Positions 35,536 through 60,267 are shown, counted from the first letter of the stretch. The stretch: DNA of 64,000 nt from Candidatus Eiseniibacteriota bacterium (GCA_005893265.1 VBOX01000085.1:5017-69016), one strand, 5' to 3'. Notes: generated by a model not told the origin, from the sequence alone. A program made the numbers and translations.

Positions 35536-36858
35536 ATGCTAGGGCGGAGGGAAGACGACCGCGGGGGCAGTGCAGGACCGTCCGCGGTCCTCGTTACGTT
35601 CGCCACGGCAGTCCTGGCCGGGGCCGCCGGAATCATCCTTGCGGGGCTGGCCGCCTGGGTCTGGGTTGGGGCGATTACGTTCGGCGGCGCGTACCTCGCC
35701 TCGAGGACATCCAGGGGGGTGAAGGCCGAAAGCCCCCTCAAGGCGCGACGACTCCTCCTCATGCTCGACCGCGGTGGGTCCCAGGAGGCGAAGGCGCCGG
35801 TGGAGTTCACGGAGGAATGGGGGACGCTCTATGAGCGTCTGAACAAGATGGCCCTCGAGGCGCGGACCAGCTCGACCGCCCTTGCCGAGCTCGAACGATT
35901 CCGCCAGCAGGCCAATCTCGCCGCCTCCATTCTGAGGGACGGCAAGGACCCGCTGACCGAAGCGCCCGAGCTGCGCGTCGGACCGCTCCAGTCCCTGCTC
36001 GAAGGCATCAAGAGCGCGGCATCCACCCCGGTCGTGAGCCGGCTTCCGCTCGGGGAGGAAGAATTGATCGGCACGGACGGGGAGGGGCTGCCCCCGACCT
36101 GGCCCAAACCGACCGGGGAGTCATCCCCTCGCGGCCCCGCGATCGCGGAGGGAGTCGCGCGCGGGCTCCGGAACCTCGTTCAGGATCTCGAGGCGCTTGG
36201 CGCCACCCTGGGGGGCGAAGGCCGGAGGCCGACCACGCCGGGGGGCGAGAACCCGGATCTCAGGAGCCCAGCTCAGCTGGTGGATGCCGTCGTGCTCACC
36301 GCCGCGGACGGAATCGAGGACCTCGCGGCGGGCCTCATGCGGGCGAATGAGCTGGCGTCCGTCGCGGAGCGCGTGACCAATCGCGCAACCCTGCTCGCGT
36401 TGAACGCGGCGCTCGAGGCGACCCGCTCCGGCAGCGAAGCGTTCGCCGCCATCGCCGAGGAGACACGGCGGCTGGCCGAGTTCGCGCGGGAGGCCACCGA
36501 CACGATCTCGCGCCTTGCGTCCGAGATCGAGTACAAGGTCGGCGAAACGATCACCGCGATCCACGCCACCAGCGAGCACGCGAAGACGTCGTTGGCGGAG
36601 ATGTCCGGCGCCGCCACACCCCTCCCGGCGTCGGCACGGAGCGCGCGAGCCCAAATCGGGAAGCTGCTCGATCGGGCCCGCGAGCTTCAGCGAGCGCTCA
36701 ACACCCCCTCCTCCGACCGGGTCGGTGGGGACCCCATGGCCGGCCCGAATTCGGTGCAGGAACACGTGGAGAACGATCCGCCACCCGCCGACAAATTGCC
36801 TGCGGAGGGGATCTTGCTGATCGAAGGGCTGAAGCCCGGAGCCCGCCTCGAGAGCTGA
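35536..36858 (+). CDS. Methyl-accepting chemotaxis protein-like transducer (2 TM, MCP signalling domain)
   Basis: N-terminal TM helices precede a coiled-coil MCP signalling domain with a highly conserved tip (TNRATLLALNAALEATRSGSEAFAAIAEETRRLAE). Confidence 0.75.
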   Translation: MLGRREDDRGGSAGPSAVLVTFATAVLAGAAGIILAGLAAWVWVGAITFGGAYLASRTSRGVKAESPLKARRLLLMLDRGGSQEAKAPVEFTEEWGTLYERLNKMALEARTSSTALAELERFRQQANLAASILRDGKDPLTEAPELRVGPLQSLLEGIKSAASTPVVSRLPLGEEELIGTDGEGLPPTWPKPTGESSPRGPAIAEGVARGLRNLVQDLEALGATLGGEGRRPTTPGGENPDLRSPAQLVDAVVLTAADGIEDLAAGLMRANELASVAERVTNRATLLALNAALEATRSGSEAFAAIAEETRRLAEFAREATDTISRLASEIEYKVGETITAIHATSEHAKTSLAEMSGAATPLPASARSARAQIGKLLDRARELQRALNTPSSDRVGGDPMAGPNSVQEHVENDPPPADKLPAEGILLIEGLKPGARLES

Positions 36859-36886: not shown

Positions 36887-38620
36887 ATGAGAACCGCCGC
36901 GTCCGAGTACCTAAGCCAAACTCAAATCATGTCTCGTCTGGGCGCGACCTTCGGTGCGCTCATTCACGAGCAGGTCGCGGCCGTACGCCGCTTCCTCGAC
37001 GATGAGACCAACTACGACTCGAGCGACTTCCTCCCGATCGCCGAGCTTGCGGTGCGGCTCGTCGAGCGGAGCGCCGAATGGCTCGAGGTCAGCGAGATCG
37101 CGAGCTTAGCCTTCGAGATGAGAGAGACATTGGCGCAATTGGGCCAGCTACGGCCCGCCGAGCGTCAGGACGTGGTCACGCAGTGCCGGGTCGCGCTGGA
37201 GGCCGAGGAGCGCCTGGTCGAGCGCCTGCGCTCCGACGGGTTCGCGGCCCTGGTCGATCACGCGGGCCTCGTGAGCGACGCCCTGGACGGTCTGCGCGCG
37301 AATCTGAAGCAGGCACGCGCGCAAGAGCTCAACTCGGCCCGCGGCATGATCGACGATGCCACGCCGGACGTGGGGAGCCAGGAAAACCTCCTTGCCCTTA
37401 CCTTCGAGATCAAGAACTCGCTCATTCATCAGAATGAACGGATCGGCTCGATGAGCGAGGTCGTCGGCGAGACGCTGGACGCCGCGCACTCGGCGCTGAC
37501 CGAGTGGGACATCGTCCAAAAGGCTGTGGAGCGCCAGCGGATCTCGCATGGAAAGAAGGCGAGCCAGCACCCGAGCCCCCTGGAGGGGAGGTCGCTGACC
37601 ATCAACCAGCGCCTCCAAGAGACGGCGTCGGGGCTCCGCACCATCTCCCATGAGCTGAACATGCTGTTGGGCCTTCAGTACTCGCTCGAGCGAAGGGCCC
37701 GCGATCTGGACGAGCATCTCCTGTGGGAATTCCTGGATCCACTCGACCGCTATCTCGACGACATGTATACCGCCGCCCAGTGCGGAAGCCGCGGCCAGAG
37801 GATGGGTCTCTCGATTCAGACCGGCGGGGTCGGTTTCGAGCCTGAGATCGGGGCGATCCTACTCCCGCTGGTGCTGCGGCTCCTCGAGACCATGCAGCCT
37901 TTGACCGAAGCCGGTGAGACGCTCGAGATCCGGATCACGGCTGCCCGGGAAGGGCTCGAGGCGCGGCTTCAAATCGAGGGTCCTATCACGCTCGATCTGG
38001 AGCCGGTCCGGCTCCTCGAGAACGCTCTGGAAAGCCTCGGGGGCTTTGCCTCGCTGAACGAATCGCCCGGCGCGGGGACGAGCCTGAGGTTGCAGTTCCC
38101 CATGGCGAGATCCCTCCGGAGCTTCTTGATCGTGGAAGCGGGGGGGCAACGGATCGCGCTCCCGTGGAGTGCGGTGGAGCGAATCTATTCGAGCGATTCC
38201 GATCCAGCCTGGACGTCAGCCGGCAGCCCCAGGCGAATCTACTCGCTTGCGGCGCTCTTCGGCCGCGATCCGGACGGGGCGCGGTCGGAGGCGAGTCCGT
38301 CGACGGGCACCGCGGGCCGCGGCTCGAGAACGGAGAACGGCGGCGAGGGGCATCCCCTGGCTGTGCTTCGGTCCGGGAGCGGGTCGGCGGTGGTCAGCTT
38401 CGACCGGCTCGTGTGGCGCGAGAACGCGCGTTTGAAGCCCCTTCCTCCGAGACTCTTTCCCGTCGAGGAAGTCCTCGGAGGCATCATGACTCCCGATTCC
38501 GGCATCACGCTCGTATTGAACCCAAGCGCCCTCCTGAAGCGCACGCGCGCGGAAGGCGACCCGCCCACGGACGCCGGGGGTCCCGACGCGCACGCCGACT
38601 CGGGAGGCGCCGCCTCGTGA
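36887..38620 (+). CDS. CheA-like protein with C-terminal CheW-like domain; ATPase region degenerate and no clear HPt histidine motif
   Basis: The domain order resembles CheA P3-P4-P5, and a C-terminal CheW-like domain is present (SFLIVEAGGQRIALPWSAVERI). The P4-like segment lacks a recognisable N-box Asn and DxGxG G1 box (LVLRLLETMQ...IEGPITL). No H..KG HPt motif was seen. Read by eye. Confidence 0.55.
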   Translation: MRTAASEYLSQTQIMSRLGATFGALIHEQVAAVRRFLDDETNYDSSDFLPIAELAVRLVERSAEWLEVSEIASLAFEMRETLAQLGQLRPAERQDVVTQCRVALEAEERLVERLRSDGFAALVDHAGLVSDALDGLRANLKQARAQELNSARGMIDDATPDVGSQENLLALTFEIKNSLIHQNERIGSMSEVVGETLDAAHSALTEWDIVQKAVERQRISHGKKASQHPSPLEGRSLTINQRLQETASGLRTISHELNMLLGLQYSLERRARDLDEHLLWEFLDPLDRYLDDMYTAAQCGSRGQRMGLSIQTGGVGFEPEIGAILLPLVLRLLETMQPLTEAGETLEIRITAAREGLEARLQIEGPITLDLEPVRLLENALESLGGFASLNESPGAGTSLRLQFPMARSLRSFLIVEAGGQRIALPWSAVERIYSSDSDPAWTSAGSPRRIYSLAALFGRDPDGARSEASPSTGTAGRGSRTENGGEGHPLAVLRSGSGSAVVSFDRLVWRENARLKPLPPRLFPVEEVLGGIMTPDSGITLVLNPSALLKRTRAEGDPPTDAGGPDAHADSGGAAS

Positions 38621-40377
38621 GAGCCCTCCAGATCGAGCGCTTGGGACCGCGGGACGATTTCCATTTCGCGCTCCGGGGAGTCATCGATGCGGAAGGGGCG
38701 CGCTCGATCGACCGCCTCCTCCTGAATTGCCAGGGACGAAGCGCGCCGTGCGTGCGACTCGATTTGGCGCAAGTCGAGAGCATCTCGACCCTCGGCATCT
38801 CCGTCTTGAGCCGTTGGGGCCGCGTCTACGAGAAGACCGAGCGCCGAATCGAGCTGAACGGTTTGGCGCCGGAGGTCCAGGCGACGCTTCAGCAGTCTGG
38901 GGCGATCGTCTACGTCGCGAACACGATGCCCACGGCGGGCGCCATCGCCGTCGCGGCTGAGACCGCTCCAAGTCCCCCCGTTCCAAGGCCGCCCGACCGT
39001 CTCGTCGAGCCTCCGGGGATCACGGTCGATCCGGATCCCGCGAGGCGTTTTCAGGCCACGCCGCTCGATGCCCCCACCGGCCCGGAGCTGGCTTCGCTCC
39101 AATCGAAGCTCAAGCGGAAGATCGTCGAATTCCGAAATCTGTTCGAGATCACCCAAGCGCTCAACCTGGCGCAAGACCTGGACGAGGTTCTGAACCTCTT
39201 CGGCCTGAGCGTCATGGGCCAGTTCGGCTTGGAGCGGCTCGCGCTCTTTCTCAGCGATCCCGACAAGGACGGCCACTTGGTCCCCCGCCACGTGCGCGGG
39301 TTCGCACAAAACCATTTTCAGGATTTCACCGTTCCGTGGACCGCGTTTCGAAGGTTCGCCCCCGATCGCTCGTTCGTGGCCCTTCACGAAATGGAGGGCA
39401 AGCAGAGCGGCTCCGAGGAGATCGAGGCCTTGCGGGAGTCGGGGTTCGAGTGGGCGATCCTGCTCTGGGTCCGTCGCGATCTGGAGGGGGTGCTCTTCCT
39501 CGGGGGCCGCGGCAGCCGGAAGAAATTCGAGGAAGATGAGCGGGACCTCTTGACCATTCTCTCGCACCAGGGAGCCGTTGCGATCTCGAACGCAAGGGTT
39601 CAGCGGGCCCAGGAGGAGCGGAATCTCGGGCTCGTGCGCGGGATGATGGCGCTGATCGAGAGCCGCGATGGATACGCGAAGGGCAGCACCGAGCGCGTCG
39701 TCCGGTACGTGAGCGCGGTGGCTCGCCTTCTCGATTATCCGAAGGAATACCTGAAATCGCTCGTGTACGGAGCGGTGCTTCGCGACATCGGGATGATCAC
39801 GGTGAGCGGGCTCATCTTGAAGAATCCCGCGCATCTCTCGGAAGAGGAGTGGGCGCTCATCAAGCAGCACCCCCTTCGCGGGGCCCAGATCCTCGAGGAG
39901 ATGAACTTCCCCAAGGAAGTGATCGCGATCGTCTTGAATCACCACGAGCGCTGGGGCGGGGAAGGATACCCGAACGGGATCCGCGGCCAGGAAATCCCGC
40001 TGGGTGCGCGGATCGTCTCGCTCGTGGACGCCTACGTCGCCATGACGAGCGAGCGGCCCTATCGCCGGGCGCTCCCCTACGAGAAAGCGCGTCAGGTGAT
40101 CGCGGAAAACTGGGGGAGTCCCTTCGATCCGAGCGTCATCGAGGTGTTCCTGACCGTTCTCGACAAGATCGAACGCCGTACGCGCTTGCGCGAAGGCCAA
40201 CCCCTGCCCGAAGCGGCCGGAACCGCGGCGGGCGCGGAGCCCGGGCCAGCAGGCGGCTCGGCGGCTCTGGATCCTCTCGCCTCGGGCGCCACGATTCCCC
40301 TTGAGAAGGACCCGGCTCCGGACCGCTCTACCAAGTTCGGGTCCGGGCCCGCGATGGAAGCGGAGACACGCCGATGA
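38617..40377 (+). CDS. STAS - GAF - HD-GYP domain protein (HD motif apparently degenerate: RD instead of HD)
   Basis: The GTG start overlaps the previous stop (GTGA). An N-terminal STAS/anti-sigma-antagonist-like domain is followed by a GAF domain and an HD-GYP domain with HHERWGGEGYP. The HD dyad reads LRDIGM and the first His-containing motif reads KGSTERV. Confidence 0.75.
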   Translation: MRALQIERLGPRDDFHFALRGVIDAEGARSIDRLLLNCQGRSAPCVRLDLAQVESISTLGISVLSRWGRVYEKTERRIELNGLAPEVQATLQQSGAIVYVANTMPTAGAIAVAAETAPSPPVPRPPDRLVEPPGITVDPDPARRFQATPLDAPTGPELASLQSKLKRKIVEFRNLFEITQALNLAQDLDEVLNLFGLSVMGQFGLERLALFLSDPDKDGHLVPRHVRGFAQNHFQDFTVPWTAFRRFAPDRSFVALHEMEGKQSGSEEIEALRESGFEWAILLWVRRDLEGVLFLGGRGSRKKFEEDERDLLTILSHQGAVAISNARVQRAQEERNLGLVRGMMALIESRDGYAKGSTERVVRYVSAVARLLDYPKEYLKSLVYGAVLRDIGMITVSGLILKNPAHLSEEEWALIKQHPLRGAQILEEMNFPKEVIAIVLNHHERWGGEGYPNGIRGQEIPLGARIVSLVDAYVAMTSERPYRRALPYEKARQVIAENWGSPFDPSVIEVFLTVLDKIERRTRLREGQPLPEAAGTAAGAEPGPAGGSAALDPLASGATIPLEKDPAPDRSTKFGSGPAMEAETRR

Positions 40378-42041
40378 CCCCCGAGAGCTTGAAACCCGCT
40401 CTCGAGACCCGCGAGGGCAAGCAGAAGCGGACGATCCTCGTCGTCGACGACGACCGGCGCGTCGTGGATCTCCTGCAAATCTCCCTGTCGCAGAACGGCT
40501 ACCGCGTGACGACCGCTTCCACCGGCGAGGAAGCGCTGGAGGCGGTGCGCCGGGAGACTCCGGATATGGTGATTCTCGATTTGAGGCTCCCGAAGAAGAA
40601 CGGGTATGAAGTCTGTGCCGCGCTGAAGAGCTCGAAGGAGACCTCCGCGATCCCGGTCATCATGGTCTCCGCGACCGCCGAGGTCGACGCGCGTCTCCAG
40701 GGCCTCATGCACGGCGCGGACGACTACCTGACGAAGCCGTTCTCGCCGAAGGAACTCCTGATCAAGGTGCGTCGCATTTTCGAGCGGATGGAAAAGGCCG
40801 AGGTCCTGAGCACCAAGAACCGGGAGCTCGAGACGGAGGTGGCCCGGAACCGCGAGGACCTGGTCGTTCGGAACAAGGAGCTCCGCTTCCAGGTGTTCAG
40901 CCTCGAGACCCTGATGGGCCTCACCCACCAGCTCAATTCCTCGCTCGATCTCGACTCCCTGATGGGTACGGTCATTCTGAGCGTAGTGGGCCAGCTCCGC
41001 GTCAACTCCGCCTGCCTCTTCCTGACCGACTCGCGCGAAAATCCGAAACGGCTGGATGCCTGGACCTTCAAGGGCGTGAAGGAGGAGCTGGTTCGTTCGA
41101 TCACGTTCGCATACGACGATGATTTCGCCCACGCGATCCGGCCGGTCGACGGCGAGGAAGCGCGTCCGATCCGGCTGCAAGACCTGTCGGAGGACCCCTC
41201 CCTCGAGCACGACGTGGGGCCACTCTACGCGGCCGGATTCACGCTTGCATGCCCGGTCATGATGAAGGAGAAGCTCACCGCCATTCTGGCCGTCGGCGAG
41301 AAGGTGAGCGGACAGGACTTTCAGTCCACCGATCTCGAGATGGTGAAAGCGCTCTCCGAGTCGGCGGGCATCGCGATCGAGAACGCTCGGTTGTTCAAAG
41401 ACCTCCAGGATACGTATCTCGCCACCGTCCGGGTCCTGGTCTCGACGATCGAGGCGAAGGATCCCTACACGCACGGGCACACCGAGCGCGTGGCGCAGTA
41501 CGCGGTCGGGATCGCGAGGGCGATGGATTTCGGCTCGGACGAGATCCAGACGATCCAGTTGGGTGCGATCCTCCACGACATCGGCAAGCTCCACACGAGC
41601 GACTCGATCCTGCATAAGCCCGGAGCGCTCACCGACGAAGAGTGGCGCCTCGTCAAGGCACACCCGGTTCGCGGCGCGCAAATGCTCCAAGGAGTGAAGT
41701 TCCTCGAGAAGGCGACCGACCTGGTCCGCCACCACCACGAGCGCGTCGATGGAAAGGGCTACCCGGACGGGCTGCGCGGCGACGAAATCACCATCGGGGC
41801 GAAGATCGTGAACGTGGCGGATGCGTTCGACGCGATGACGACGGAGCGTCCCTATCGCGCGGGCCTGACCATCGAGCAGGCTGTCGATCAGATGCAGCAA
41901 AAGGCCGGCACCCAATTTGCCGCCGAAGTGGTCGAGGTGCTCGTGCGCGCGCTCCAAGACGGGAGCATCCAGTTGATCCGGAATCCCACGGTCTTCGACG
42001 ATTCGGTCAGGGCAACCACCTCCTTCGACCGCGGCCAGTAG
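40374..42041 (+). CDS. Response regulator: REC - GAF - HD-GYP (c-di-GMP phosphodiesterase, motifs intact)
   Basis: REC domain (ILVVDDD..., phospho-acceptor D in MVILDL, and K in LTKP). GAF domain. HD-GYP domain with HGHTERVA, LHDIGK and HHHERVDGKGYP all present. The ATGA overlap links it with the upstream gene. Confidence 0.85.
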   Translation: MTPESLKPALETREGKQKRTILVVDDDRRVVDLLQISLSQNGYRVTTASTGEEALEAVRRETPDMVILDLRLPKKNGYEVCAALKSSKETSAIPVIMVSATAEVDARLQGLMHGADDYLTKPFSPKELLIKVRRIFERMEKAEVLSTKNRELETEVARNREDLVVRNKELRFQVFSLETLMGLTHQLNSSLDLDSLMGTVILSVVGQLRVNSACLFLTDSRENPKRLDAWTFKGVKEELVRSITFAYDDDFAHAIRPVDGEEARPIRLQDLSEDPSLEHDVGPLYAAGFTLACPVMMKEKLTAILAVGEKVSGQDFQSTDLEMVKALSESAGIAIENARLFKDLQDTYLATVRVLVSTIEAKDPYTHGHTERVAQYAVGIARAMDFGSDEIQTIQLGAILHDIGKLHTSDSILHKPGALTDEEWRLVKAHPVRGAQMLQGVKFLEKATDLVRHHHERVDGKGYPDGLRGDEITIGAKIVNVADAFDAMTTERPYRAGLTIEQAVDQMQQKAGTQFAAEVVEVLVRALQDGSIQLIRNPTVFDDSVRATTSFDRGQ

Positions 42042-50336: not shown

Positions 50337-51347
50337 ATGCGCATCCTCGGCATCGAGACCTCATGCGACGACACAGGTGCCGCCGTCGTCGAAGACGGCC
50401 GCATTCTCTCCAACATCGTCGCGGCACAGGATATCCACCTCGAGTACGGAGGCGTGGTCCCGGAGCTGGCGTCGCGGGCCCACATCACGCTGCTTCCGCG
50501 TGTCGTGCAGCAGGCTCTCGACACAGCCCAAGTTACGGTGGATCAGATCGAAGCCGTCGCGGCCACGGTCGGACCCGGGCTCGTCGGCTCGCTCCTCGTC
50601 GGGATCGAGTTCGCCAAGGGATTCGCGCTAGCGCGCGGGATCCCCTGGGTGGGGGTGAACCACGTCGAGGCGCACCTCGTCTCCGCGGGGCTCGAGGCGG
50701 ACCTCCAGGCACCCTACGTCGGCATGGTCGCCTCTGGAGGGCACACCGAGATCTATCACGTGCCGGAGCCGGGCGTCTTCCGTCGCGTCGGCTCGACCCG
50801 TGACGACGCGGCGGGGGAGGCATTCGACAAGATCGGGAAACTCCTCGGGCTGCCTTACCCGGCGGGCCCCCATCTGGATCGGCTCGCGCGTGAGGGGAGG
50901 GCGGATGCGATCCCCCTCCCCAGGGCACGCCTCAAGGGAGACACCCTCGACCTAAGCATGAGCGGGCTCAAGACCGCGGCGAAGCTCTTCCTCGAGCGCG
51001 AGCCTCGCCCGATCCCGGACCCGAGAATCCGTGACATCGCGGCTTCGGTCGAGAAGGCGATCGTGGACGTTCTCGTCGAGCGGCTGGGGCAGGCGCTTTC
51101 GCGGTTCGAAGCCCGCGCCGTGACCGTGGCGGGTGGCTGCGCCTGCAACACCCTCCTCCGTGAGGAGACCGCACGACTGGCCGCGGCCCGCGGGATTCCG
51201 GCGCGGTTTCCCTCGCCAAAGCTCTGCCGGGACAACGGGGCGATGATCGCCCACGCCGGCTCCCTCGCGATCCAGCGCGGCCAAACGACCCCCTTCAGCG
51301 CGACCGCCATCGCTAACCTGGACTCGTTTTCGCTGCTGCCGGTCTGA
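50337..51347 (+). CDS. tsaD: tRNA N6-adenosine threonylcarbamoyltransferase
   Basis: MRILGIETSCDDTGAAVV, HLEGH-like metal-binding motifs, and the GGV.AN sequence. Confidence 0.9.
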   Translation: MRILGIETSCDDTGAAVVEDGRILSNIVAAQDIHLEYGGVVPELASRAHITLLPRVVQQALDTAQVTVDQIEAVAATVGPGLVGSLLVGIEFAKGFALARGIPWVGVNHVEAHLVSAGLEADLQAPYVGMVASGGHTEIYHVPEPGVFRRVGSTRDDAAGEAFDKIGKLLGLPYPAGPHLDRLAREGRADAIPLPRARLKGDTLDLSMSGLKTAAKLFLEREPRPIPDPRIRDIAASVEKAIVDVLVERLGQALSRFEARAVTVAGGCACNTLLREETARLAAARGIPARFPSPKLCRDNGAMIAHAGSLAIQRGQTTPFSATAIANLDSFSLLPV

Positions 51348-51698
51348 ATTCTTGAGTTTCGACGACCCTCGGGCCGCGGGTACCCGCCTATTTCTCCACC
51401 TCCGCAACTCGCCCCGGGGCGAGTTGAACGTGCGCTGGCGCACGTAGGTCGTCGCATCGCGGGCAAGCAGCTCCTCGACTTCCGACTTCCCCCTCGAACT
51501 TCCCCTTCCGATTTCACCTCCTGGGCTGCCCCCGCCGTGCAAATTGCAACGTTCTCGTCCGCACGCCGTATTTGTCCCTCCGTGGCTCAAGAATGACGCG
51601 GGCGAGGCCGAACAATTCGAAGAGCGGTACCAAGTTCCGCCCTTTGGCGGTTCCGGGATCCGACCGCGCGGGCCGCGGCGCATGCAACGGAATTCGAG

Positions 51699-52736
51699 GT
51701 GTCACGCGTGAACCAGTCCTCACCCACGCCCGAGACTGGACGAATCCTCGTCATCGAGGACGATCCCAAGCTCCGGTTCATTCTGGAGAAGCAACTAAGC
51801 GACGCTAAGGACGCGCAGTACGAAGTGCGCACCGCGGAGGACGGGGTGCGCGGGCTGCAGGAAGTTCGTCGCGACGCACCCGAGCTGATCCTGCTCGACG
51901 TGATGATGCCCGGTCTCGACGGGTACGAGGTGTGCCGGCAGCTCAAAGCGAATCCGCTCACGTCGCGTATCCCGATCATCTTTCTCACCGCCAAGTCGAC
52001 GTTCGAGGATCGGATCCACGGTCTCGAGCTTTACGCCGACGACTACATCACGAAACCGTGGGCGCAGAGCGAGCTTCTCTTCCGGGTCAGGAATCAGCTC
52101 AAGACCCGGCGAGCCCAGCTCCAATCCAACGCCCTGACCGGGCTGCCCGGAAACGTGCTCATCGAGACGGAGCTCTCGCGCAGGATCGCGCAAGGAGAGA
52201 AGTTCGCGTTCCTGCACATCGACCTGGATTACTTCAAGGCCTACAACGACTACTACGGCTACGCGCGCGGCGACGCGGTCATCCGCTTCGTGGCCGCGCT
52301 GCTCCACGAGCAGATCCAGCGCTACGGGATCGTGGGGGACTTCGTGGGTCACATCGGCGGAGACGACTTCGTCGTGATCACGATGCCGGATCGCGCCCAG
52401 CTCGTCGCGGACGCGGTTCACGCGAGCTTCGACGCCCGGATCACGGAACACTACGACGACCTGGACTTGAAGCGCGGCCACATCACCGTCCTTTCGAGCC
52501 GGCAAGGGGGTATCAAGAAGTTCGGCATGATGTCGATCACGATCCTGATCGTGAGCAACGTGGGCCGGGACATCCAGCACAGCGCCCAGGTCAGCGACAT
52601 CGCGAAGGAGCTCAAGAAAAAGGGCAAGGCGATGGTTGGGAGCGTGGTCGTGCCCGACAGGCGACTGGACGGCACGCCGATCATGCCCGCCGCCGAGCTC
52701 CCCGCGTCCGACGGGTCGGAACCACCGGCATGTTGA
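51699..52736 (+). CDS. Response regulator REC - GGDEF-family domain (motif GGDDF)
   Basis: REC domain with D in ILLDVMMPGLDG and K in ITKP, followed by a GGDEF-type domain with the signature HIGGDDFVV. The start is GTG at 51699. Confidence 0.8.
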   Translation: MSRVNQSSPTPETGRILVIEDDPKLRFILEKQLSDAKDAQYEVRTAEDGVRGLQEVRRDAPELILLDVMMPGLDGYEVCRQLKANPLTSRIPIIFLTAKSTFEDRIHGLELYADDYITKPWAQSELLFRVRNQLKTRRAQLQSNALTGLPGNVLIETELSRRIAQGEKFAFLHIDLDYFKAYNDYYGYARGDAVIRFVAALLHEQIQRYGIVGDFVGHIGGDDFVVITMPDRAQLVADAVHASFDARITEHYDDLDLKRGHITVLSSRQGGIKKFGMMSITILIVSNVGRDIQHSAQVSDIAKELKKKGKAMVGSVVVPDRRLDGTPIMPAAELPASDGSEPPAC

Positions 52737-55111
52737 GCCGCCCCGATGAGAATCCCGGCCGCGGCGCCGGCTCGGCCATCCGACTCCTCCCGGGACTCTC
52801 CAGCCTCAGCTTCGCCGTTCAATCCGCGTTCGACGCGCAGGGCCTCGTGGCGGCGGTGGCGCGGCACGTCCTGGAGCTCGCGCGGGCCGACTCATTCTCG
52901 CTCCTTCTGCTCGACTACGAAACCGGCGAGCTGCACGGGGATCACTTCGAGCACGGCACGCACGGGCCCACGGGAACGTGCCGGGTCACGCCGCGTCCCG
53001 GTGGCTTTCTCGCGCAGGTGCTGCGACGGGAGACGCTCATCGTCGAGGACGCGCTCCGCATGGAGGCCGCCGATTGGAAGGAGCTCCATTGGGGCGGGCG
53101 GGTGCCCCACGCTCTCGTCGGGGTACCGATCATCGTGGGTACCTCGCTCCTGGGCGTAGCGCTCTTGGGCTTCAACCGGCCGCTCAAGGCGAGTGCGCGC
53201 AGGCGCCGGGCGCTGCTCTTCCTCGCCGATCAGATCGGTCTCGCGGTCGACCGGATCCGCACGCACGCGGAGCTCGAGCAGAAGACGGTCCAACTCGAGG
53301 AAGCCAGCGTGTCTCTCCGGCGGATCGACGAGATGAAATCGGAGCTGATCTCGGTCGTGTCGCACGAGCTTCGGACTCCCCTGACCTCGATCAAGGCGTA
53401 TACCGAGACCCTGCTCGACAACGTGCACAATCCCGCCTTCACGATGCACGAGAAGTTCCTCGGGATCATCAACGAGGAATGCGACCGCTTGACGAGAATC
53501 GTGAACGACGTGCTCGACCTGAGCCGGATGGATTCCGGGCGGCGGAGGCTCAAGTCGGAACCGGTCGCGCTGGACCGCCTGCTCGACGAGGTCCTGCCGA
53601 CCGTAGGGCCGCAGCTCGCGCCCAGGCGCCTCTCCGTCGTGCCCGACTTCGCCCCTGGGCTCCCTCTGATCGAGGCGGATCCCGATCTACTGAAGCAGGT
53701 GCTGGTGAACCTCATCACCAACGCGGCCAAGTTCTCCCGCGAAAGCTCCCCCATCACGATTCACGCGAGGACTGTGGCCGATCGAATGCACATCGTCGTC
53801 GAGGACCATGGGATGGGGATTCCCGCCGACAAGCTGAACCGCGTGTTCGAGCGCTTCTTCCGGGTCGAAGAGGGAGGAGCGGAGCGGATCGGCGGATCGG
53901 GGCTGGGGCTCGCGATCGTGAAGAGCGTCGTGGAGCTTCACGGCGGCACCGTTCGCGTCGAGAGCGACCTGGGACGGGGGAGCCGGTTCGTGATGGAGCT
54001 TCCCTTGGTCCAGCGCGGATTCCGGAATCTGATGCGCTCGCTCGAGCCGTTCTTCGAGATGCCGGAGCTGCGCACCCTTCTCTCGAGCGCGGTCGAGATG
54101 GTGGCCGAGGTGATGGAGGCGCGGAACGTCTCGATCATGTTCTTCAACGAGGACGGCACCGAGCTTCACATCCGCGCGGCGCACGGCCTCGACCCGGACA
54201 TGGTGGCGAGGGCCCGGGTCAAGACCGGGGCGTCGATTGCGGGGTGGGTCGCCCAGACCAACGAGAACCTCCTCGTGAACGACATCGAAAACGACCGGAG
54301 ATTTCGCAAGCTGAACCATCCGCAGTACGAGACGAAGTCGCTCCTGTGCGTGCCGCTCCGGATCTCCGGCGAGACGGTCGGGGTCGTGAACGTGAGCAGC
54401 AAGTCGACGGGGCTTCCGTTCGATCCCGACGATCTGAGTCTCCTGGTCGCGATCTCGAAGCGGGTTGGCACCGCGCTGGAGCGCGTGCGGTCGGCCGGTT
54501 CCTCCGGGGACGTTTACACGACCCTGAATACCATCCGCACCGTCATCCGCGCCAAGCGGAGCTACTCCCTCTGGAGCTCGCGCCGCGCGTTCAAGCTCGC
54601 GACCGACCTCGGCCGGAAGCTCGGACTCGCGGAGGAGGAGCTCGAGGTTCTCGGCTACGTGGCGCGCGTCCACGACGTCGGCATGCTCGCGGTGGGCGAG
54701 GACCTCGTCTTGAGCTCACGGCGGTGGACGGAGCAGGAGCGGCGCCGCGTCGAGACGCATCCGCGCGACGGCGTTCGCGTGCTTCAGCCGATCGAATTCG
54801 CCTCTCGCGCGAACGAAATCATCCTGAGCCACCACGAGCACTTCGACGGCCACGGCTATCCGCGTGGCCTCGCCGGGGAGGAGATCCCGCTCGCGGCCCG
54901 TATCCTGGCGGTCGTGGACGCGTTCGAGGCCATGACGCTGGGACGGCCCTACCGCGATTCCATACCCGAGGCTGAGGCGCTCGCCGAAGTGAGGCGGTGC
55001 TCCGGGACGCAGTTCGATCCACGGGTCGTGAAGGAGTTCGAGCGTCTGATCGCCCGGAAGGGGACGGTCCGCGCCAGCTCCTTGCTGGCGCACCGGAAGG
55101 TATCCACATGA
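52730..55111 (+). CDS. Hybrid sensor: GAF - HisKA/HATPase_c histidine kinase - GAF - HD-GYP
   Basis: HisKA H-box (SHELRTPLTSIKAY), HATPase N/G boxes (NLITNAAKF, DHGMGI, GGSGLGLAI), a second GAF, then HD-GYP (ARVHDVGM, HHEHFDGHGYP). The start ATG 52730 overlaps the previous stop (ATGTTGA). Confidence 0.8.
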   Translation: MLSRPDENPGRGAGSAIRLLPGLSSLSFAVQSAFDAQGLVAAVARHVLELARADSFSLLLLDYETGELHGDHFEHGTHGPTGTCRVTPRPGGFLAQVLRRETLIVEDALRMEAADWKELHWGGRVPHALVGVPIIVGTSLLGVALLGFNRPLKASARRRRALLFLADQIGLAVDRIRTHAELEQKTVQLEEASVSLRRIDEMKSELISVVSHELRTPLTSIKAYTETLLDNVHNPAFTMHEKFLGIINEECDRLTRIVNDVLDLSRMDSGRRRLKSEPVALDRLLDEVLPTVGPQLAPRRLSVVPDFAPGLPLIEADPDLLKQVLVNLITNAAKFSRESSPITIHARTVADRMHIVVEDHGMGIPADKLNRVFERFFRVEEGGAERIGGSGLGLAIVKSVVELHGGTVRVESDLGRGSRFVMELPLVQRGFRNLMRSLEPFFEMPELRTLLSSAVEMVAEVMEARNVSIMFFNEDGTELHIRAAHGLDPDMVARARVKTGASIAGWVAQTNENLLVNDIENDRRFRKLNHPQYETKSLLCVPLRISGETVGVVNVSSKSTGLPFDPDDLSLLVAISKRVGTALERVRSAGSSGDVYTTLNTIRTVIRAKRSYSLWSSRRAFKLATDLGRKLGLAEEELEVLGYVARVHDVGMLAVGEDLVLSSRRWTEQERRRVETHPRDGVRVLQPIEFASRANEIILSHHEHFDGHGYPRGLAGEEIPLAARILAVVDAFEAMTLGRPYRDSIPEAEALAEVRRCSGTQFDPRVVKEFERLIARKGTVRASSLLAHRKVST

Positions 55112-57687
55112 TTCCGTCCGTGGAGCTGGTCTGGGCCCTCGCGGCCGCCGTGCTCCTCATCATGGAGCAGCTGCGCCATCGCCGCTCGCTTCGGCACGAG
55201 CTCAAGTCGCTCCGCTCGTCCTACGACGCCGTGATCCACCGGAACGAGGAGCTGACCCAGGCAAGCGACAAGATGAGCGACCTCTACCGATACCAGCTCC
55301 TCACGAGCCGCAAGCGCGCGGCCAGGATCAAGAAGGTGCTGGAGATCGCGACGAGCATCAATTCGAACCTCTCGTTGGACAAGGTCCTCCATGAGATCGT
55401 GCACGCGGTCTCGGACGCGGCGGGGTTCCGGATGGTCCTGCTGCGCGTCCTCAATGAGTCGAGCGGGGCGTTCGAGGCTCGGGCGTTCGCGGGGCTGAAC
55501 CGAGAGGCGATCCGAAAGCTCGAGCAGCATCGAATCCCACGCTCCGAGTTCGACAGCTGGCTGAAGGAGGAGTTCCGGGTCAGCCGCTCCTACTTCATCA
55601 GCCACGACCGGAAGTTCTGGGGGAAGGAAGACGACGAGGGCTTCACGCCGGACTTGGGGATCCGCAAGGAGGGGGAGTGGCATCAGGAGGACGTCCTCTT
55701 CGTCCCGCTCTATACGAAAGACGGCGCGACGATCGGCTACCTCTCCGTCGACGATCCGGTGGACCGCCGGCTCCCTTCCCGGGAGACCGTCGAGACCTTG
55801 GAGATCCTCGCGACCCATGCGGTCGTGGCCATCCAGAACGCGAGCCTCTACGAGCGTCTGAACCAGAGCATGGGTCAGCTCGAGGAGGCGACCGAGCGCG
55901 CCGAGGAGCTGAACGACCTCAAGTCCTCCTTCGTCTCGACCGTTTCCCACGAGCTCCGGACGCCCTTGACCGCGATCCGCGCGTACGTGGAAGCGCTCCT
56001 CGAGAGCGTGGGCTCACCCAACATCGAGATGCAGCGTCAGTTCTTGGGCGTGATCGACGACCAGAGCCTGAAGCTCCGGCGACTCATCGATTCCGTTCTC
56101 GAGCTGTCTCAGCTCGAGTCGGGCCGGTTCCGCATGAACCGCGAGCCGTTCAACCTGGTCGCCCTGACCGACGAGGTCGTCGAGGCTCTGCACCCGATGG
56201 CCGATCCGAAAAGGATCACGATCCGGACCGAGTCGGAGGTGCCCGAGATCGTGGTCGAGGCGGACCGCGCGCTGATGAAGCGCGTCCTCAACAACCTGGG
56301 AAGCAATGCGATCAAGTTCACCCACGAGGGCGGGACGGTCACCTTACGGACGAAAAACGAGGGGCGCGCGGTGCGCATCCAGGTGGAGGACACGGGGATC
56401 GGGATCCCGAAAGAGGAAATCGAGAAGATCTTCGACAAGTTCTATCAGATCGACAGCTCCCTGTCGCGCGAGTATCCGGGCGTGGGCTTGGGCCTCACCG
56501 TCTCGAAGAGCATCATCGAATGGCACGGTGGGGAAATCCTGGCGGAGAGCGAGACGGGTGTGGGATCGCGCTTCACCGTGCTCATGCCGGTCACCCCCGG
56601 GGACGCGAACGTAATCACCCACGCCACCTGGACTCCCTCCCGCTCGGTCTCGGATCACTTGACCCGGCTCACGGTGGAGATGATCGCTGAGGTCATGAAC
56701 GCGCGCACCGCGTCCTTCATGCTCGTGGACGAGGAGAAGTCCGAGCTCTACATACGCGCCGCCCGCGGCCTGCGTGAAGAAGTGGTCTGCGGCACCCGCG
56801 TCAAGATCGGCGACTCGATCGCCGGGTGGGTGGCGAAGCACGGCCAGCCGCTCCTCGTCACCAACATCGAGGAGGACCCGCGGTTCGGCAGGCCGAACGG
56901 CCATCAATACGAGACCAAGTCGCTCCTTTCGGTCCCGGTCAAGATCGGGGGACGGGTGGTCGGCGTGATCAACATCAACAACAAGGTCTCGTGCACTCCA
57001 TTCACGGAGGACGACCGCGCGCTCCTCTCCTCCCTCTCGGATCGGGTCGCCTTGGCCTGGCAGCGCGTCTCCGACCACGAACGCACGTCCGACCGAACCG
57101 AGGAGACCGCGAAGGCTCTGGCCGCGATCATCGAGAACGCGCGGCGCAGCCGGCTCAAGCTGAGCTCCGGCTCGATGGCGGGCCGGGCGGTGGCGCTGGC
57201 GCGGAAGATGGAGCTCAAGGATGAGGACGTGGAGGTGCTCGCCTACGTCGCGAGCGTCCACGACGTCGGGATGTCGCAGATTGACCTTTCCGTCCTGCAG
57301 GAGCCGGGCAAGTTGGACGACGAGGCCTGGGCCGAAGTGGCGCTCCATCCCCTGCGCTCCGCGGAGATCGTGAAACCGATCGAGTTCCAGGAGCAGGTGA
57401 CCGAAATCATTCTGGCGCACCACGAGCGGATGGATGGACGTGGATACCCACGGGGCATCAAGGGGGACCGAATTCCCCTCGGCGCCCGGATCATCGCCGT
57501 TCTCGACGCCTACGAGTCGATGACGATGGGGAGGCCCTACCGGCACGCGATGAGCCACCAGGACGCGGTCCAAGAGCTGCGTCAGTGCAAGGGAACCCAG
57601 TTTGACTCGAGGGTGGTGGAGGCGTTCGCGCAACTTCCTGAGTTTCAGGAGAATACAAAGCTAGTTCGGGCTGGAGAACCGGCTTAA
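55108..57687 (+). CDS. Paralogous hybrid sensor: TM - GAF - histidine kinase - GAF - HD-GYP
   Basis: Same architecture as the upstream gene, with an N-terminal TM helix. H-box SHELRTPLTAIRAY, G-boxes DTGIGI/GVGLGL, HD-GYP (ASVHDVGM, HHERMDGRGYP). ATGA overlap at 55108-55111. Confidence 0.8.
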   Translation: MIPSVELVWALAAAVLLIMEQLRHRRSLRHELKSLRSSYDAVIHRNEELTQASDKMSDLYRYQLLTSRKRAARIKKVLEIATSINSNLSLDKVLHEIVHAVSDAAGFRMVLLRVLNESSGAFEARAFAGLNREAIRKLEQHRIPRSEFDSWLKEEFRVSRSYFISHDRKFWGKEDDEGFTPDLGIRKEGEWHQEDVLFVPLYTKDGATIGYLSVDDPVDRRLPSRETVETLEILATHAVVAIQNASLYERLNQSMGQLEEATERAEELNDLKSSFVSTVSHELRTPLTAIRAYVEALLESVGSPNIEMQRQFLGVIDDQSLKLRRLIDSVLELSQLESGRFRMNREPFNLVALTDEVVEALHPMADPKRITIRTESEVPEIVVEADRALMKRVLNNLGSNAIKFTHEGGTVTLRTKNEGRAVRIQVEDTGIGIPKEEIEKIFDKFYQIDSSLSREYPGVGLGLTVSKSIIEWHGGEILAESETGVGSRFTVLMPVTPGDANVITHATWTPSRSVSDHLTRLTVEMIAEVMNARTASFMLVDEEKSELYIRAARGLREEVVCGTRVKIGDSIAGWVAKHGQPLLVTNIEEDPRFGRPNGHQYETKSLLSVPVKIGGRVVGVININNKVSCTPFTEDDRALLSSLSDRVALAWQRVSDHERTSDRTEETAKALAAIIENARRSRLKLSSGSMAGRAVALARKMELKDEDVEVLAYVASVHDVGMSQIDLSVLQEPGKLDDEAWAEVALHPLRSAEIVKPIEFQEQVTEIILAHHERMDGRGYPRGIKGDRIPLGARIIAVLDAYESMTMGRPYRHAMSHQDAVQELRQCKGTQFDSRVVEAFAQLPEFQENTKLVRAGEPA

Positions 57688-57733
57688 GGCGCCGATAGAA
57701 CCCATGCCGGGCAGGCAGGAGGAGGTGAGTCGG

Positions 57734-58135
57734 ATGTCCAAAGGGAAAATCCTGGTCGTGGATGATGAAATCTACATTGTCCACATCCTGGACTTCAGTT
57801 TGGGGATGGAAGGCTACGAGGTCGTAACGGCACTGGATGGCGAACAGGCGCTCGAAAAGGTGAAGAACGAGAAGCCCGACCTCATCGTGCTCGACATCAT
57901 GATGCCGAAGCTGGACGGATACGAAGTTTGCAAGAGCATCAAGTCGAGCGCCGCGACCCAACATATTCCGGTGATCCTCCTCTCGGCCAAGGGACGAAAC
58001 GTCGACCAGAAGCTCGGCTTCGACGTGGGCGCGGACGATTACATCACGAAGCCGTTCAGTCCCCGAAAGCTGGTCGAGCGCATCAACCAGCTGCTCGGCC
58101 AGACCGTCACCGAGCGACCCGCTCCCTCCGCGTAG
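57734..58135 (+). CDS. Single-domain response regulator (CheY-like)
   Basis: MSKGKILVVDDE ... DLIVLDIMMP ... ITKPF. RBS GGAGGAGGTGAG. 133 aa. Confidence 0.75.
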   Translation: MSKGKILVVDDEIYIVHILDFSLGMEGYEVVTALDGEQALEKVKNEKPDLIVLDIMMPKLDGYEVCKSIKSSAATQHIPVILLSAKGRNVDQKLGFDVGADDYITKPFSPRKLVERINQLLGQTVTERPAPSA

Positions 58136-58248
58136 GCTCCCCTCGGCTCCACGAGTCGAGCTTGAGGGGACGCCGCGCGCGTGCCCATCGGCTCTGTTGA
58201 GGGCTCCCTCCAGGTCTTTTCCCTCCGCGAGTGCTACCATGCGTCGCT

Positions 58249-60267
58249 ATGGCCTTGGTCCGCGTCGCAGTTCCCATCCCTCTTGCCCGCGAAGAGTCGC
58301 TCGTCTATGAGATCCCGGAGGAAGACACCCCGGAGGTAGGGCTCCGCGTGCTCGTGCCGGTCGGTCCGCGGCGCGTCTGGGGCACGGTGCTTGGGGTCGA
58401 AAAGACCCGGCCGGAATTTCGGGTACGCCGCATCGCCGGAATTCCCGAGCCCCGCCTGGTGGTCACGCCGGAGCTTCTCGGGCTTTGCCGCTGGGTGGCG
58501 GACTACTATGCCGCCAATCTGAGCGACGTGCTGCAGGCGGCCGTGCCGTCCCCGATCGGGCTCACGCGACGCGCGGTGCGCGCCCCGGAGGAGGGGGAGG
58601 CTGCGTGGCTCGCGGTCGCTCCCCCGCGTCGGGAGGAGTTGAACGAGGAGCAGCACGCGGCGCTCACCGCGTTGGAAGAAGCGCTCCGCACGCGCGAGTT
58701 CCGCGCCTTCCTTCTTTTCGGTGTAACCGGAAGCGGAAAGACGGCGGTTTACCTCCACGCCGCCGCCGAAGCGTTGAAGCTCGGCGGACAGACACTCATT
58801 CTCGTTCCCGAGATCGCGCTCTCCCCCCAGACGCTCGACTCCTTCCGCCGCGCGGGATTCGAGCGGGTGGCGCTCTACCACAGCACGCTTCGTCCCCGGG
58901 AGCGCGCCGACGTGTGGCGGGCCGCGGCCATGGGGGAAATCGACCTGGTCGTCGGTACCCGGTCGGCGGTATTCCTGCCCTTCCGGAACCTCCGCCTCGT
59001 CGTCGTGGACGAGGAGCAAGACGGAGCCTACAAGCAGGATGATTCTCCGCGGTACCACGCGCGCGACGTGGCGCTCGTGCGCGCCCAGCGGCTGGGCGGG
59101 ACCGTCATCCTCGCGTCGGCGACTCCCAGCCTGGAAAGCTTCGCGCGCGTAAAGCGCGGGCAGTGCGGGCTCCTTCGCCTTTCGAGGCGGATCGACGGAA
59201 GGCCGCTCCCGACGGTGCGAATCACCGATCTACGGCACCGCGCGGCGTCCACCGCCCCTTCCGGCGGGTCGCGCTACATCACCCCACCCCTCGTCGAGGC
59301 GATGGCGAAGACGCTCGAGAGGCGCGAGCAGGCGATCCTTTTCTTGAACCGCCGGGGCCACTCCACGTATCTACAGTGCCGGGGTTGTGGGGACGTGGCG
59401 CGGTGCAAGCGCTGCGACGTTTCGTTTACGGTGCACTTGGATGACGGGTCGCTCCGGTGTCACTACTGCGGCGCGGAGCGGAAGCTCATGCCCACATGCG
59501 CCGGCTGCGGCGCCTCGAACCTATGGTTCGGAGGCGTCGGAATCCAGCGCATCGAGCGCGAGGTTGGAAAGCTCTTCCCCGAGGCCCGGATCGCGAGGCT
59601 CGACTTCGACGCCACGCGGAAGCGCGGCTCCGCGGCCGCGATCCTGAGCGCGTTCCGTGCGGGGGAAACCGATTTCCTCCTCGGCACGCAGATGGTCGCG
59701 AAGGGATTCGATTTCCCCATGGTCACCCTCGTGGGGATCATCGTGGCGGACCTGCAGCTGTATCTGCCCGATTTCCGCGCCGCCGAGAGAACCTTCCAGC
59801 TCCTGACCCAGGTTGCCGGCCGTGCGGGACGCGGGGCACGAGCCGGAGAGGTGATCCTCCAGACTTACGATCCCGACCATCCGGCGCTGCGGTGCGCGGC
59901 GGCTCAGGATTTCGAGATGTTTTTCGATCAGGAGGCCGCCGAAAGAATGGAGCTTCACTATCCGCCCTTCGGCCATCTGGTGGAGGTGGAGATCCGCGGC
60001 GCGAAGAAAGAACGCGTCATTCGGGCGGCCGGCATGATCCGGGACGCCCTTGGCGTGCTCGCGCGCCAGCTCGACGTGGAGCTTCTCGGCCCCGCCCCCA
60101 AGCCGATCGCGCGAATCCAGGGGGCGGAGCGGTGGCACATCCTGATAAGGAGCGGCTCGCGGAAAACGCTCCAAGCCTATTTGAAGGGCGCGGTTCCAGT
60201 CCTCCGCACCCGAACCTGGCCGGGCGTTCGAGTCAGCGTGGATGTAGATCCCAGGCACGTGTTGTAA
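58249..60267 (+). CDS. priA: Primosomal protein N' (replication restart helicase PriA)
   Basis: Walker A (GVTGSGKT), a DEEQD box, and a double Cys cluster (CRGCGDVARCKRCDVS...CHYCGAERKLMPTCAGCG) typical of PriA. Confidence 0.85.
   Translation: MALVRVAVPIPLAREESLVYEIPEEDTPEVGLRVLVPVGPRRVWGTVLGVEKTRPEFRVRRIAGIPEPRLVVTPELLGLCRWVADYYAANLSDVLQAAVPSPIGLTRRAVRAPEEGEAAWLAVAPPRREELNEEQHAALTALEEALRTREFRAFLLFGVTGSGKTAVYLHAAAEALKLGGQTLILVPEIALSPQTLDSFRRAGFERVALYHSTLRPRERADVWRAAAMGEIDLVVGTRSAVFLPFRNLRLVVVDEEQDGAYKQDDSPRYHARDVALVRAQRLGGTVILASATPSLESFARVKRGQCGLLRLSRRIDGRPLPTVRITDLRHRAASTAPSGGSRYITPPLVEAMAKTLERREQAILFLNRRGHSTYLQCRGCGDVARCKRCDVSFTVHLDDGSLRCHYCGAERKLMPTCAGCGASNLWFGGVGIQRIEREVGKLFPEARIARLDFDATRKRGSAAAILSAFRAGETDFLLGTQMVAKGFDFPMVTLVGIIVADLQLYLPDFRAAERTFQLLTQVAGRAGRGARAGEVILQTYDPDHPALRCAAAQDFEMFFDQEAAERMELHYPPFGHLVEVEIRGAKKERVIRAAGMIRDALGVLARQLDVELLGPAPKPIARIQGAERWHILIRSGSRKTLQAYLKGAVPVLRTRTWPGVRVSVDVDPRHVL

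Follow-up and report, generated by a model that had tools for sequence, protein, structure and literature searches.

Two tandem histidine kinases fused to degenerate HD-GYP domains in a conserved c-di-GMP signalling cluster of Candidatus Eiseniibacteriota

The gene cluster and the kinase halves of HK1 and HK2

A stretch of 64,000 nucleotides (nt) from a Candidatus Eiseniibacteriota bacterium (GCA_005893265.1, VBOX01000085.1:5017-69016), referred to here as the window, carries on its plus strand, at positions 51699-58135, four co-directional genes for signalling by cyclic di-GMP (c-di-GMP). The cluster lies between tsaD and priA and was delimited by codon-position GC content and open reading frame (ORF) structure, the GC content of the window being about 65%. 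It encodes a receiver (REC) protein with a GGDEF-like domain of signature GGDDF, two proteins (HK1 and HK2) in which a histidine kinase (HK) and an HD-GYP domain share one polypeptide, and a single-domain CheY-like regulator (Table 1). Pfam, ORF and motif analysis recovered the order of the domains, the overlaps at the gene starts and the signature GGDDF as given in a preliminary description of the locus. The Pfam E-values of the cluster proteins, from 1e-16 to 1e-34, are far beyond chance; the NCBIfam scan of the same proteins gave no equivalog match, and all its matches were below the family cut-offs.

The junctions of the genes are tight. Between the REC-GGDDF gene and HK1 the junction is ATGTTGA, a string that contains both the ATG of HK1 and the TGA stop of the upstream gene, and HK1 and HK2 overlap by ATGA. 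A gap of 46 nt separates HK2 from cheY, which is preceded by a ribosome-binding site, GGAGGAGG, and which has an alternative ATG at 57704 that would give 143 amino acids (aa). From this arrangement the four genes are predicted to be co-transcribed as one operon. The genes around it are housekeeping genes, namely the ATP synthase operon, tsaD, priA, a gene for a tetratricopeptide repeat (TPR) protein, and rho.

HK1 and HK2 are sensor kinases of the HisKA family. Pfam detected HisKA (2e-20 in HK1 and 5e-20 in HK2), HATPase_c (9e-30 and 5e-28), GAF in two stretches (9e-29 and 2e-28), and HD_5 (3e-34 and 4e-33). Both proteins have SHELRTP as the H-box, which includes the phosphatase motif ExxT, and the remaining boxes are also present: N (NLITNAAKFS in HK1, NLGSNAIKFT in HK2), G1 (DHGMGIP, DTGIGIP), F (FERFF, FDKFY), and G2 (GGSGLGL, PGVGLGL). 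In the alignments these boxes were conserved among orthologues, and the kinase cores resembled PnpS, WalK, and PhoR in NCBIfam, below the equivalog cut-offs. To judge from these motifs, both kinase halves look catalytically intact and active. No Response_reg domain was detected by Pfam in either protein, so that they are not hybrid histidine kinases; nor do they belong to the RpfG family, considering that a GAF domain precedes the HD-GYP domain and that the N-terminal half is a kinase. In the hydropathy analysis HK2 had one N-terminal hydrophobic helix, followed by a stretch that may form a coiled coil, while HK1 had no strong N-terminal hydrophobic segment and the Latescibacteria-type orthologues had four to six hydrophobic segments.

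The fused HD-GYP domains and their family

The C-terminal domains of HK1 and HK2 are true HD-GYP domains (HD_5 / PS51832) with the motif HHExxDGxGYP. The HD_5 match spans profile positions 5-170 in HK1 and 20-170 in HK2, and the sequence matches of both domains in the PDB were exclusively HD-GYP proteins, the best being V-cGAP3, PA4781, DvhD, and PmGH. The AlphaFold model of HK2 residues 505-859 had a predicted local distance difference test score (pLDDT) of 84 and a predicted template modelling score (pTM) of 0.85. When it was compared by Foldseek, PmGH (4mcw) was the best match, with 349 columns across GAF and HD-GYP, followed by DvhD (9rbz) and PA4781; further matches were Bd1817, an HD-GYP protein, and, for the GAF part, the cyclic AMP (cAMP) GAF domain of Lcd1 (5w10). 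The second GAF domain (GAF2) resembles cyclic-nucleotide-binding GAFs. These matches, the fold and the GYP motif rule out a generic HD domain, the alternative against which the HD-GYP assignment had been set. The likeness to the PmGH family (GAF-HD-GYP) holds for the C-terminal module alone, as the whole protein has an additional GAF-kinase half.

The active site of these domains was examined in PmGH numbering. Both proteins keep H221, D222, H250, H276, H277, E278, G284, Y285, P286, D305, R314, and an Arg at 317. In both, D183 is replaced by Arg and K225 by Met, and E185 is Tyr in HK1 and Ser in HK2. The equivalent of H189, the first His of the canonical GH(S/T)ERV, is Ser in HK1 and Ser, or Met by an alternative alignment, in HK2. 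The KPG motif is SSR in HK1 and EPG in HK2, and the Tyr of GYP and the RPYR motif are present in both. The full catalytic set, which comprises D183, H189, H221, D222, K225, H250, H276, H277, and D305, E185 being optional, is therefore incomplete in HK1 and HK2. Among the nine aligned HK1 sequences (eight loci and the window) the retained ligands were invariant, and the H189 position varied between Ser, Asn, and Ala. The motif and residue alignments agree with the preliminary description, in which HD and HHE..GYP were said to be kept and the first His lost in both domains; the extent of the degeneracy had been underestimated, since D183, E185, and K225 are lost too, and as a family-wide signature.

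This signature was seen when 1.84 billion representatives (50% identity) were searched exhaustively with HMMER and the domains of the best 150 matches were parsed. A kinase and an HD-GYP domain in one chain were found in 56 of these 150 representatives, almost all of them with the order (GAF)-HK-GAF-HD-GYP. The Pfam scan of 55 of the 56 together with the two window proteins (n = 57), from which a protein with the order HD-GYP-HD-GYP-HK-HK (P0361) was excluded, gave HD_5 in 57, HATPase_c in 55, HisKA in 53, GAF in 55-56, and Response_reg in only 1. In the residue table of 55 kinase-fused representatives, H189 was kept in 3 and K225 in 1, the other K225 positions being Met or Leu, and D183, E185, H189, and K225 were almost always lost. 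Position 221 was divided between His (21 representatives) and Tyr (24), and the rest of the site was kept in most of them: D222, H250, and H276 in 49 each, H277 in 52, E278, G284, and P286 in all 55, Y285 in 51, D305 in 52, R314 in 48, and Lys or Arg at 317 in 47. The motif HDxGM without H189 was present in 120/120 HK2 orthologues, none of which had equivalents of D183 or E185 either, and YDLGL in 99/99 members of a distant branch from Krumholzibacteria and Latescibacteria. One fused representative (P0344) retains a fully canonical site. As a control, the unfused GAF-HD-GYP proteins of the same search had the canonical DxYTHGHSxRV, HD(I/V)GK, and KPG. Since the unfused relatives keep the canonical site, the change appears to be specific to the kinase fusion, and the loss of the H site would be both fusion-specific and family-wide. 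The loss goes beyond the first His and is a signature of the family, and it makes a sensor role of the domain more plausible than an enzymatic one.

The degenerate domain is well conserved. Among 119 HK2 orthologues, 52 of its 160 positions were invariant, a proportion similar to that of the kinase core, which indicates that the HD-GYP domain of HK2 is under purifying selection; GAF2 was the most conserved domain of HK2, with 74 of 146 positions invariant. HK1 and HK2 thus stand for a large and so far uncharacterised family of histidine kinase-HD-GYP fusions, whose members have systematically lost the H site and kept the remaining pocket.

The preliminary description had called such a fusion rare. 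This is the case among characterised proteins, as the kinase fusion does not appear in the text of the census of HD-GYP architectures by Galperin and Chou, its Table 3 aside, but not in sequence space, given the 56 fused chains among the best 150 representatives. From these data the HK-HD-GYP fusion appears uncharacterised and taxonomically restricted, yet not rare. Fusions of kinases to EAL domains have been reported in Alphaproteobacteria. Seven loci considered as further fusions (L014, L058, L059, L067, L073, L077, and L080) were rejected, as they have separate neighbouring HK and HD-GYP genes; they come from Planctomycetota, Deltaproteobacteria, Spirochaetales, and Aminicenantes, and in 5 of the 7 a CheY-like gene lies between the two. 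The best matches also included giant proteins of 1,500-3,500 aa with 6-12 tandem GAFs and a terminal kinase core (P0245, P0248, P0254, and about 70 other representatives).

Distribution, partner regulators and other features of the window

HK2 is represented by at least 120 clusters at 90% identity, with 65-100% identity over the full length and the same Pfam set; the few clusters that carry a name are mostly Candidatus Eisenbacteria. The species-representative genomes gave nine full-length HK2 matches, mostly in metagenome-assembled genomes of Eisenbacteria and including a complete chromosome of 3.1 Mb. Two of these contigs are titled Dormiibacterota and Hyphomicrobiales, which we take to be binning errors because their proteins are 71-83% identical to the Eisenbacteria protein. 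In all nine loci the order is REC-GGDDF, HK1, HK2, cheY, as far as the contigs reach; priA follows cheY in 9/9, and the five loci with contig sequence further upstream have tsaD ahead of the cluster. Across the nine loci orthologues are 61-97% identical, and HK1 and HK2 are about 42% identical to each other.

The distant branch consists of proteins of about 1,100 aa in about 100 clusters, named Krumholzibacteria and Latescibacteria. Two of its contigs (L081 and L082), one branch contig having 51% GC, show the order tsaD, REC-GGDEF, a small extra kinase, HKa, HKb, cheY, priA, TPR, rho; in L082 there are three extra genes after tsaD, and HKa was called only as a C-terminal fragment of 415 aa. 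The Latescibacteria-type regulator also has LTGLPGN, HIGGDDF, and SRQG. The extra kinase, whose gene comes after that of the GGDDF regulator and before that of the first fused kinase, is a soluble protein of 273-277 aa with the H-box HELKRPT (4140-4961 in L081, 4143-4976 in L082); neither the window nor any of the nine related loci, most of them Eisenbacteria, has it. HK1 and HKa, and likewise HK2 and HKb, are reciprocal best hits, and from this and the shared synteny it follows that the tandem duplication would predate the split of these phyla. HK1 and HK2 are thus paralogues, as the preliminary description proposed, but the synteny and reciprocal best hits speak for an ancient duplication and not for a local event. 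The operon appears conserved in no fewer than two uncultured phyla, and probably in three, and its fixed placement between tsaD and priA across them suggests a central regulatory role.

The same data bear on whether the fusion is an artefact or a decaying gene, produced by a frameshift, a mis-assembly or neutral drift. The seven loci of other phyla with separate neighbouring genes would give this idea a starting point, as read-through could mimic a fusion. Nevertheless, almost all of the 120 HK2 clusters have a length of 855-867 aa across independent assemblies, the frames are open with a conserved GAF between kinase and HD-GYP, 52 positions of the HD-GYP domain are invariant as described above, and the same arrangement is found in the phylum of 51% GC. 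An assembly artefact or pseudogene is ruled out by this conservation of length and sequence, and drift or decay is hardly credible.

The REC-GGDDF regulator was identified by Response_reg (9e-28) and GGDEF (2e-16); PleD was its best match in both NCBIfam, below the family cut-off, and the PDB. Its AlphaFold model (pLDDT 86) had WspR (3bre), PleD (2wb4), and DgcR (6zxb) as best fold matches, and it has the layout of these proteins, with REC, coiled coil, and GGDEF fold. The signature is GGDDF in place of the canonical [GAS]G[DE]E[FY], and it is invariant in 43 orthologues. Also invariant in these 43 are the phospho-acceptor D67, the Mg ligand D175 (D327 in PleD), the guanine contacts N183 and D192 (N335 and D344), and the phosphate contacts K306 and K310 (K442 and R446, the second being an Arg to Lys change). 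There are equally invariant deviations from PleD: LTGLPGNV for LTGLxNRR, HIGG for RxGG, and the SSRQGG insertion. In the alignment with PleD, read by eye, the RxxD inhibitory site (I-site) five residues before GG was not found, IVGD being there instead, also invariantly. In a homology search with the GGDDF domain, the best 120 matches were close orthologues alone.

The only enzyme of this signature reported to be active is the Hypr-GGDEF protein GSU1937 of Geobacter, whose GGDDF domain functions in vivo (PMC8835794). In GSU1937 the residue equivalent to PleD D344 is the Hypr Ser, and the product is cyclic GMP-AMP (cGAMP), whereas the window protein keeps an invariant Asp192 (RGD); the Asp at this diagnostic position rules out a Hypr-GGDEF or cGAMP synthase. 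Because the Asp is kept at the specificity position, c-di-GMP is the expected product of the REC-GGDDF protein. The preliminary description had considered it a possibly weak or inactive cyclase. The unusual motif stands, but neither weakness nor inactivity can be derived from it, as GSU1937 is active and the residues that contact Mg, guanine, and phosphate do not vary.

The CheY-like protein (Response_reg, 2e-31) has DD at 10-11, D54, S84, and K106. Its gene is the most conserved of the cluster, with 88-100% identity in the nine loci against 61-97% for the kinases; with the homologue of L081 (11319-11696) the identity is 65%, and that of the kinases across phyla is 35-39%. This suggests that the CheY-like protein is a highly constrained partner.

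Upstream of the operon there is a leader of 352 nt after tsaD. The alignment of the intergenic region between tsaD and the regulator in the window and five Eisenbacteria loci revealed conserved blocks (Table 1), one of which, GTGCAAATTGCAACG, is a near-palindrome; these blocks may be a promoter or operator. When the entire window was searched against Rfam at the gathering thresholds, no riboswitch or other known RNA was found in the leader, the single match being a tRNA at 31267-31339 on the minus strand. A scan of positions 51200-58400 found no sigma-70 promoter, and in the same region the scan for intrinsic terminators gave one terminator-like hairpin, inside cheY, fewer than in shuffled sequences.

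Besides HK1 and HK2, the window has two more HD-GYP domains, encoded at 38164-40377 and 40374-42041. The total is four by tblastn and by the profile hidden Markov model (HMM) on the six-frame translation (E<=10), and not five as previously counted; a fifth HD-GYP protein was rejected by both searches. The chemosensory genes described upstream do exist, one being CheW-like and one resembling methyl-accepting chemotaxis proteins (MCP). The ORF between the MCP-like gene and the first of the two HD-GYP genes had no Pfam match at E<=0.001. That HD-GYP gene codes for a STAS-GAF-HD-GYP protein, whose true start is probably further downstream, because the annotated one lies some 450 nt inside the preceding ORF. 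Its HD-GYP domain is also degenerate, with RDIGM for HDIGK and Ser at the position of the first His, the change of K225 to Met being the one seen in the kinase-fused domains; HHE..GYP and RPYR are kept. The REC-GAF-HD-GYP protein has a canonical site and is predicted to be the likeliest real c-di-GMP phosphodiesterase of the window.

Table 1. Coordinates of the cluster, its domains and motifs, and other features in the window.
Feature	Position (nt)	Strand	Details
REC-GGDDF gene	51699-52736	+	GTG start, 345 aa; REC ~aa 16-130, phospho-acceptor D67 in LLDVMMP; coiled-coil linker; GGDEF-like ~aa 145-320; motifs LTGLPGN, DLDYFKAYNDYYGYARGD, SSRQGG hairpin insertion, K306/K310
HIGGDDF motif	52350-52370	+	
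GGDDF signature	52356-52370	+	aa 220-224
HK1	52730-55111	+	793 aa; GAF-like ~aa 28-185, HisKA 202-270 (H212 in SHELRTP), HATPase_c 317-427, GAF2 446-584, degenerate HD-GYP 604-766
HK1 HD-GYP domain	54539-55027	+	THP (H250 equivalent), DAFEAMT (D305 equivalent), RPYR
HK1 VHDVGM	54668-54685	+	
HK1 HHEHFDGHGYP	54830-54862	+	
HK2	55108-57687	+	859 aa; hydrophobic helix aa 1-19, GAF1 ~95-260, HisKA 272-339 (H281), HATPase_c 386-496, GAF2 517-651, degenerate HD-GYP 680-836
HK2 GAF2 + HD-GYP module	56620-57687	+	EPG, LHP, DAYESMT, RPYR
HK2 VHDVGM	57256-57273	+	
HK2 HHERMDGRGYP	57418-57450	+	
CheY-like gene	57734-58135	+	133 aa
tsaD	50337-51347		directly before the cluster
Conserved non-coding blocks	51537-51631	+	candidate promoter or operator
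Block GTGCAAATTGCAACG	51537-51551	+	
Block CTCAAGA	51586-51592	+	
Block CCGAACAATTCGAAGAGCGGTACC	51608-51631	+	
priA	58231-60267		directly after the cluster
CheW-like gene	34808-35533		
MCP-like gene	35536-36858		
ORF without Pfam match	36887-38620		577 aa; coding-like GC content at third codon positions; between MCP-like and STAS-GAF-HD-GYP genes
STAS-GAF-HD-GYP gene	38164-40377		upstream chemosensory-like cluster
REC-GAF-HD-GYP gene	40374-42041		canonical site: DPYTHGHTERV, HDIGK, KPG, HHHERVDGKGYP

Possible role of the fused domain and comparison with known systems

A key aspect of the cluster is what the HD-GYP domain may do on the kinase. We tentatively favour that the C-terminal PmGH-like module of HK1 and HK2 would be a pseudo-enzyme, a c-di-GMP sensor through which the kinase receives feedback, over a residual phosphodiesterase and over a pure docking domain, which we rank in that order behind it. 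In PmGH, the mutations H189A, K225A, and D183A abolish hydrolysis and E185A strongly reduces it, H189 belonging to the H metal site and E185 bridging the M and H sites; the complex with c-di-GMP was obtained with only the iron of the G site bound (PMC4159591). On the grounds of these mutants and of this G-site-only complex, the fused domains would have kept a site sufficient for binding and lost the residues for turnover. There are precedents for degenerate domains of this type: DvhD binds c-di-GMP without metal or hydrolysis, and the binding moves a helical stalk (PMC13090378), and PA2572, a YN-GYP protein, has no detectable activity and is still regulatory (PMC3411652). RpfG of Xanthomonas is a third degenerate example, devoid of the E185 and H189 equivalents.

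According to this proposal, GAF1 of the kinases would sense cytoplasmic cues, and HK1 and HK2 would phosphorylate the REC-GGDDF cyclase and the CheY-like protein. The cyclase would make c-di-GMP free of product inhibition, which is proposed because it has no RxxD I-site. The c-di-GMP would then bind to the non-hydrolysing, or barely hydrolysing, HD-GYP domain on the kinase, with GAF2 possibly binding a cyclic mononucleotide as an added input, and a conformational change transmitted by the helical stalk would shift the balance between kinase and phosphatase, so that the feedback would take place at the level of the kinase.

Several points weigh against a sensing pseudo-enzyme. The G-site ligands and D305 are all retained, as in a binuclear enzyme that is still active, and DvhD, a proven receptor, has no metal ligands left. 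The Lysobacter homologue of RpfG without that first His reportedly hydrolyses c-di-GMP robustly. In addition, the KPG motif is lost in HK1, the alignment of the poorly conserved H189 helix is less certain than that around HD, it is uncommon for a sensor domain to follow the ATP-binding domain, and the pairing of kinases and regulators comes from gene order only.

The first of these points would fit a bifunctional protein, in which a remodelled binuclear G/M site hydrolyses c-di-GMP, pGpG, or cGAMP. Each polypeptide would then activate the cyclase by phosphorylation and degrade its product, a push-pull control for which GAF2 would be the gate. That the G-site ligands, D305, E278, GYP, and RxYR are retained across phyla is consistent with this, and so are the RpfG-type proteins, which like Xanthomonas RpfG lack the equivalents of E185 and H189 and are proposed to be binuclear, the one of Lysobacter being reportedly active. 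Moreover, cAMP-activated GAF-HD-GYP enzymes such as Tlr0485 are known, GAF2 being similar to cyclic-nucleotide GAFs, and P0344 is fully canonical. However, almost all fused members have lost at once the four residues on which the activity of PmGH depends, half of the family has Tyr for the His of HD, when the H221A mutant of PmGH is inactive, the YN-GYP protein PA2572 shows no activity, and the canonical site of the unfused relatives makes the change fusion-specific. We consider a bifunctional protein possible but rather unlikely.

Taking into account that GYP is invariant, it could also be that the domain binds no nucleotide and is a scaffold, whose GYP surface would serve as a docking site for the regulator's GGDEF domain, or for some other partner, and would thereby bring cyclase and kinase into one complex. 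Protein-protein interactions of HD-GYP domains are known for RpfG, HnoD, and ECA3548 (Galperin and Chou), and the GGDEF gene is always immediately upstream or one gene away. Pure docking would not require, however, that the metal ligands and RxY(K/R) be as conserved as GYP, and this explanation seems improbable.

Returning to the sensing pseudo-enzyme, HD-GYP is the less understood class of c-di-GMP phosphodiesterases, and few of its degenerate members have an assigned role. If the proposal is true, HD-GYP receptors would give two-component kinases a novel means of reading c-di-GMP, and the signature (H/Y)DxG(M/L) without the upstream His would separate sensors from enzymes in annotation, where the kinase-fused proteins are currently named 'HD domain-containing phosphohydrolase'. 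It is conceivable, but doubtful, that a metal-containing HD-GYP pseudo-enzyme acts as a built-in c-di-GMP receptor of the kinase and that the operon is a core feedback circuit spanning the phyla Eisenbacteria, Latescibacteria, and Krumholzibacteria, comparable in function to CckA/PleD/DivK of Caulobacter although its components differ.

By comparison with PmGH of Persephonella marina (4MCW), the C-terminal halves of HK1 and HK2 have the same GAF and HD-GYP arrangement, and each domain also matches in sequence; PmGH is not fused to a kinase and is an active tri-iron phosphodiesterase in which none of the eight ligands is missing, whereas the window module is fused behind a kinase and lacks D183, E185, H189, and K225. 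DvhD of Desulfovibrio vulgaris (PAS-HD-GYP, 9RBZ), the degenerate c-di-GMP receptor that was the second-best fold match to the HK2 module, has lost HD (SQ) and HH (MN) and has no metal, while the kinase-fused domains keep the G-site ligands; its output is the control of a protease, and that of the window proteins is a kinase. In RpfC/RpfG of Xanthomonas a two-component kinase is likewise coupled to HD-GYP, and RpfG acts partly via protein interactions. There the response regulator carries the HD-GYP domain, with REC phosphorylation as its control, whereas in the window it is on the kinase, connected through a GAF domain, with no REC between.

Control of a kinase by c-di-GMP binding has precedents in SgmT and CckA, where it sets the activity or the localisation of the kinase, the C-terminal domain of SgmT being a degenerate GGDEF. 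The kinase RavS, which appears in PMC6707612, is reportedly also set by c-di-GMP binding. The receptors of these three proteins are a GGDEF I-site, a catalytic and ATP-binding (CA) domain or a PAS domain, and in the window it would be HD-GYP; moreover, none of them is known from an operon in which two tandem kinases accompany the cyclase, unlike the window. The proposed wiring would resemble that of PleC/DivJ-DivK-PleD in Caulobacter, joined by a c-di-GMP-sensing kinase such as CckA, SgmT, or RavS. The Caulobacter module has two kinases, a single-domain regulator, and a regulator-cyclase, PleD having two REC domains, GGEEF, and an I-site. The likeness is one of wiring only, since the kinases are not orthologous and the Caulobacter module has no HD-GYP. 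The operon would be a new assembly of known parts.

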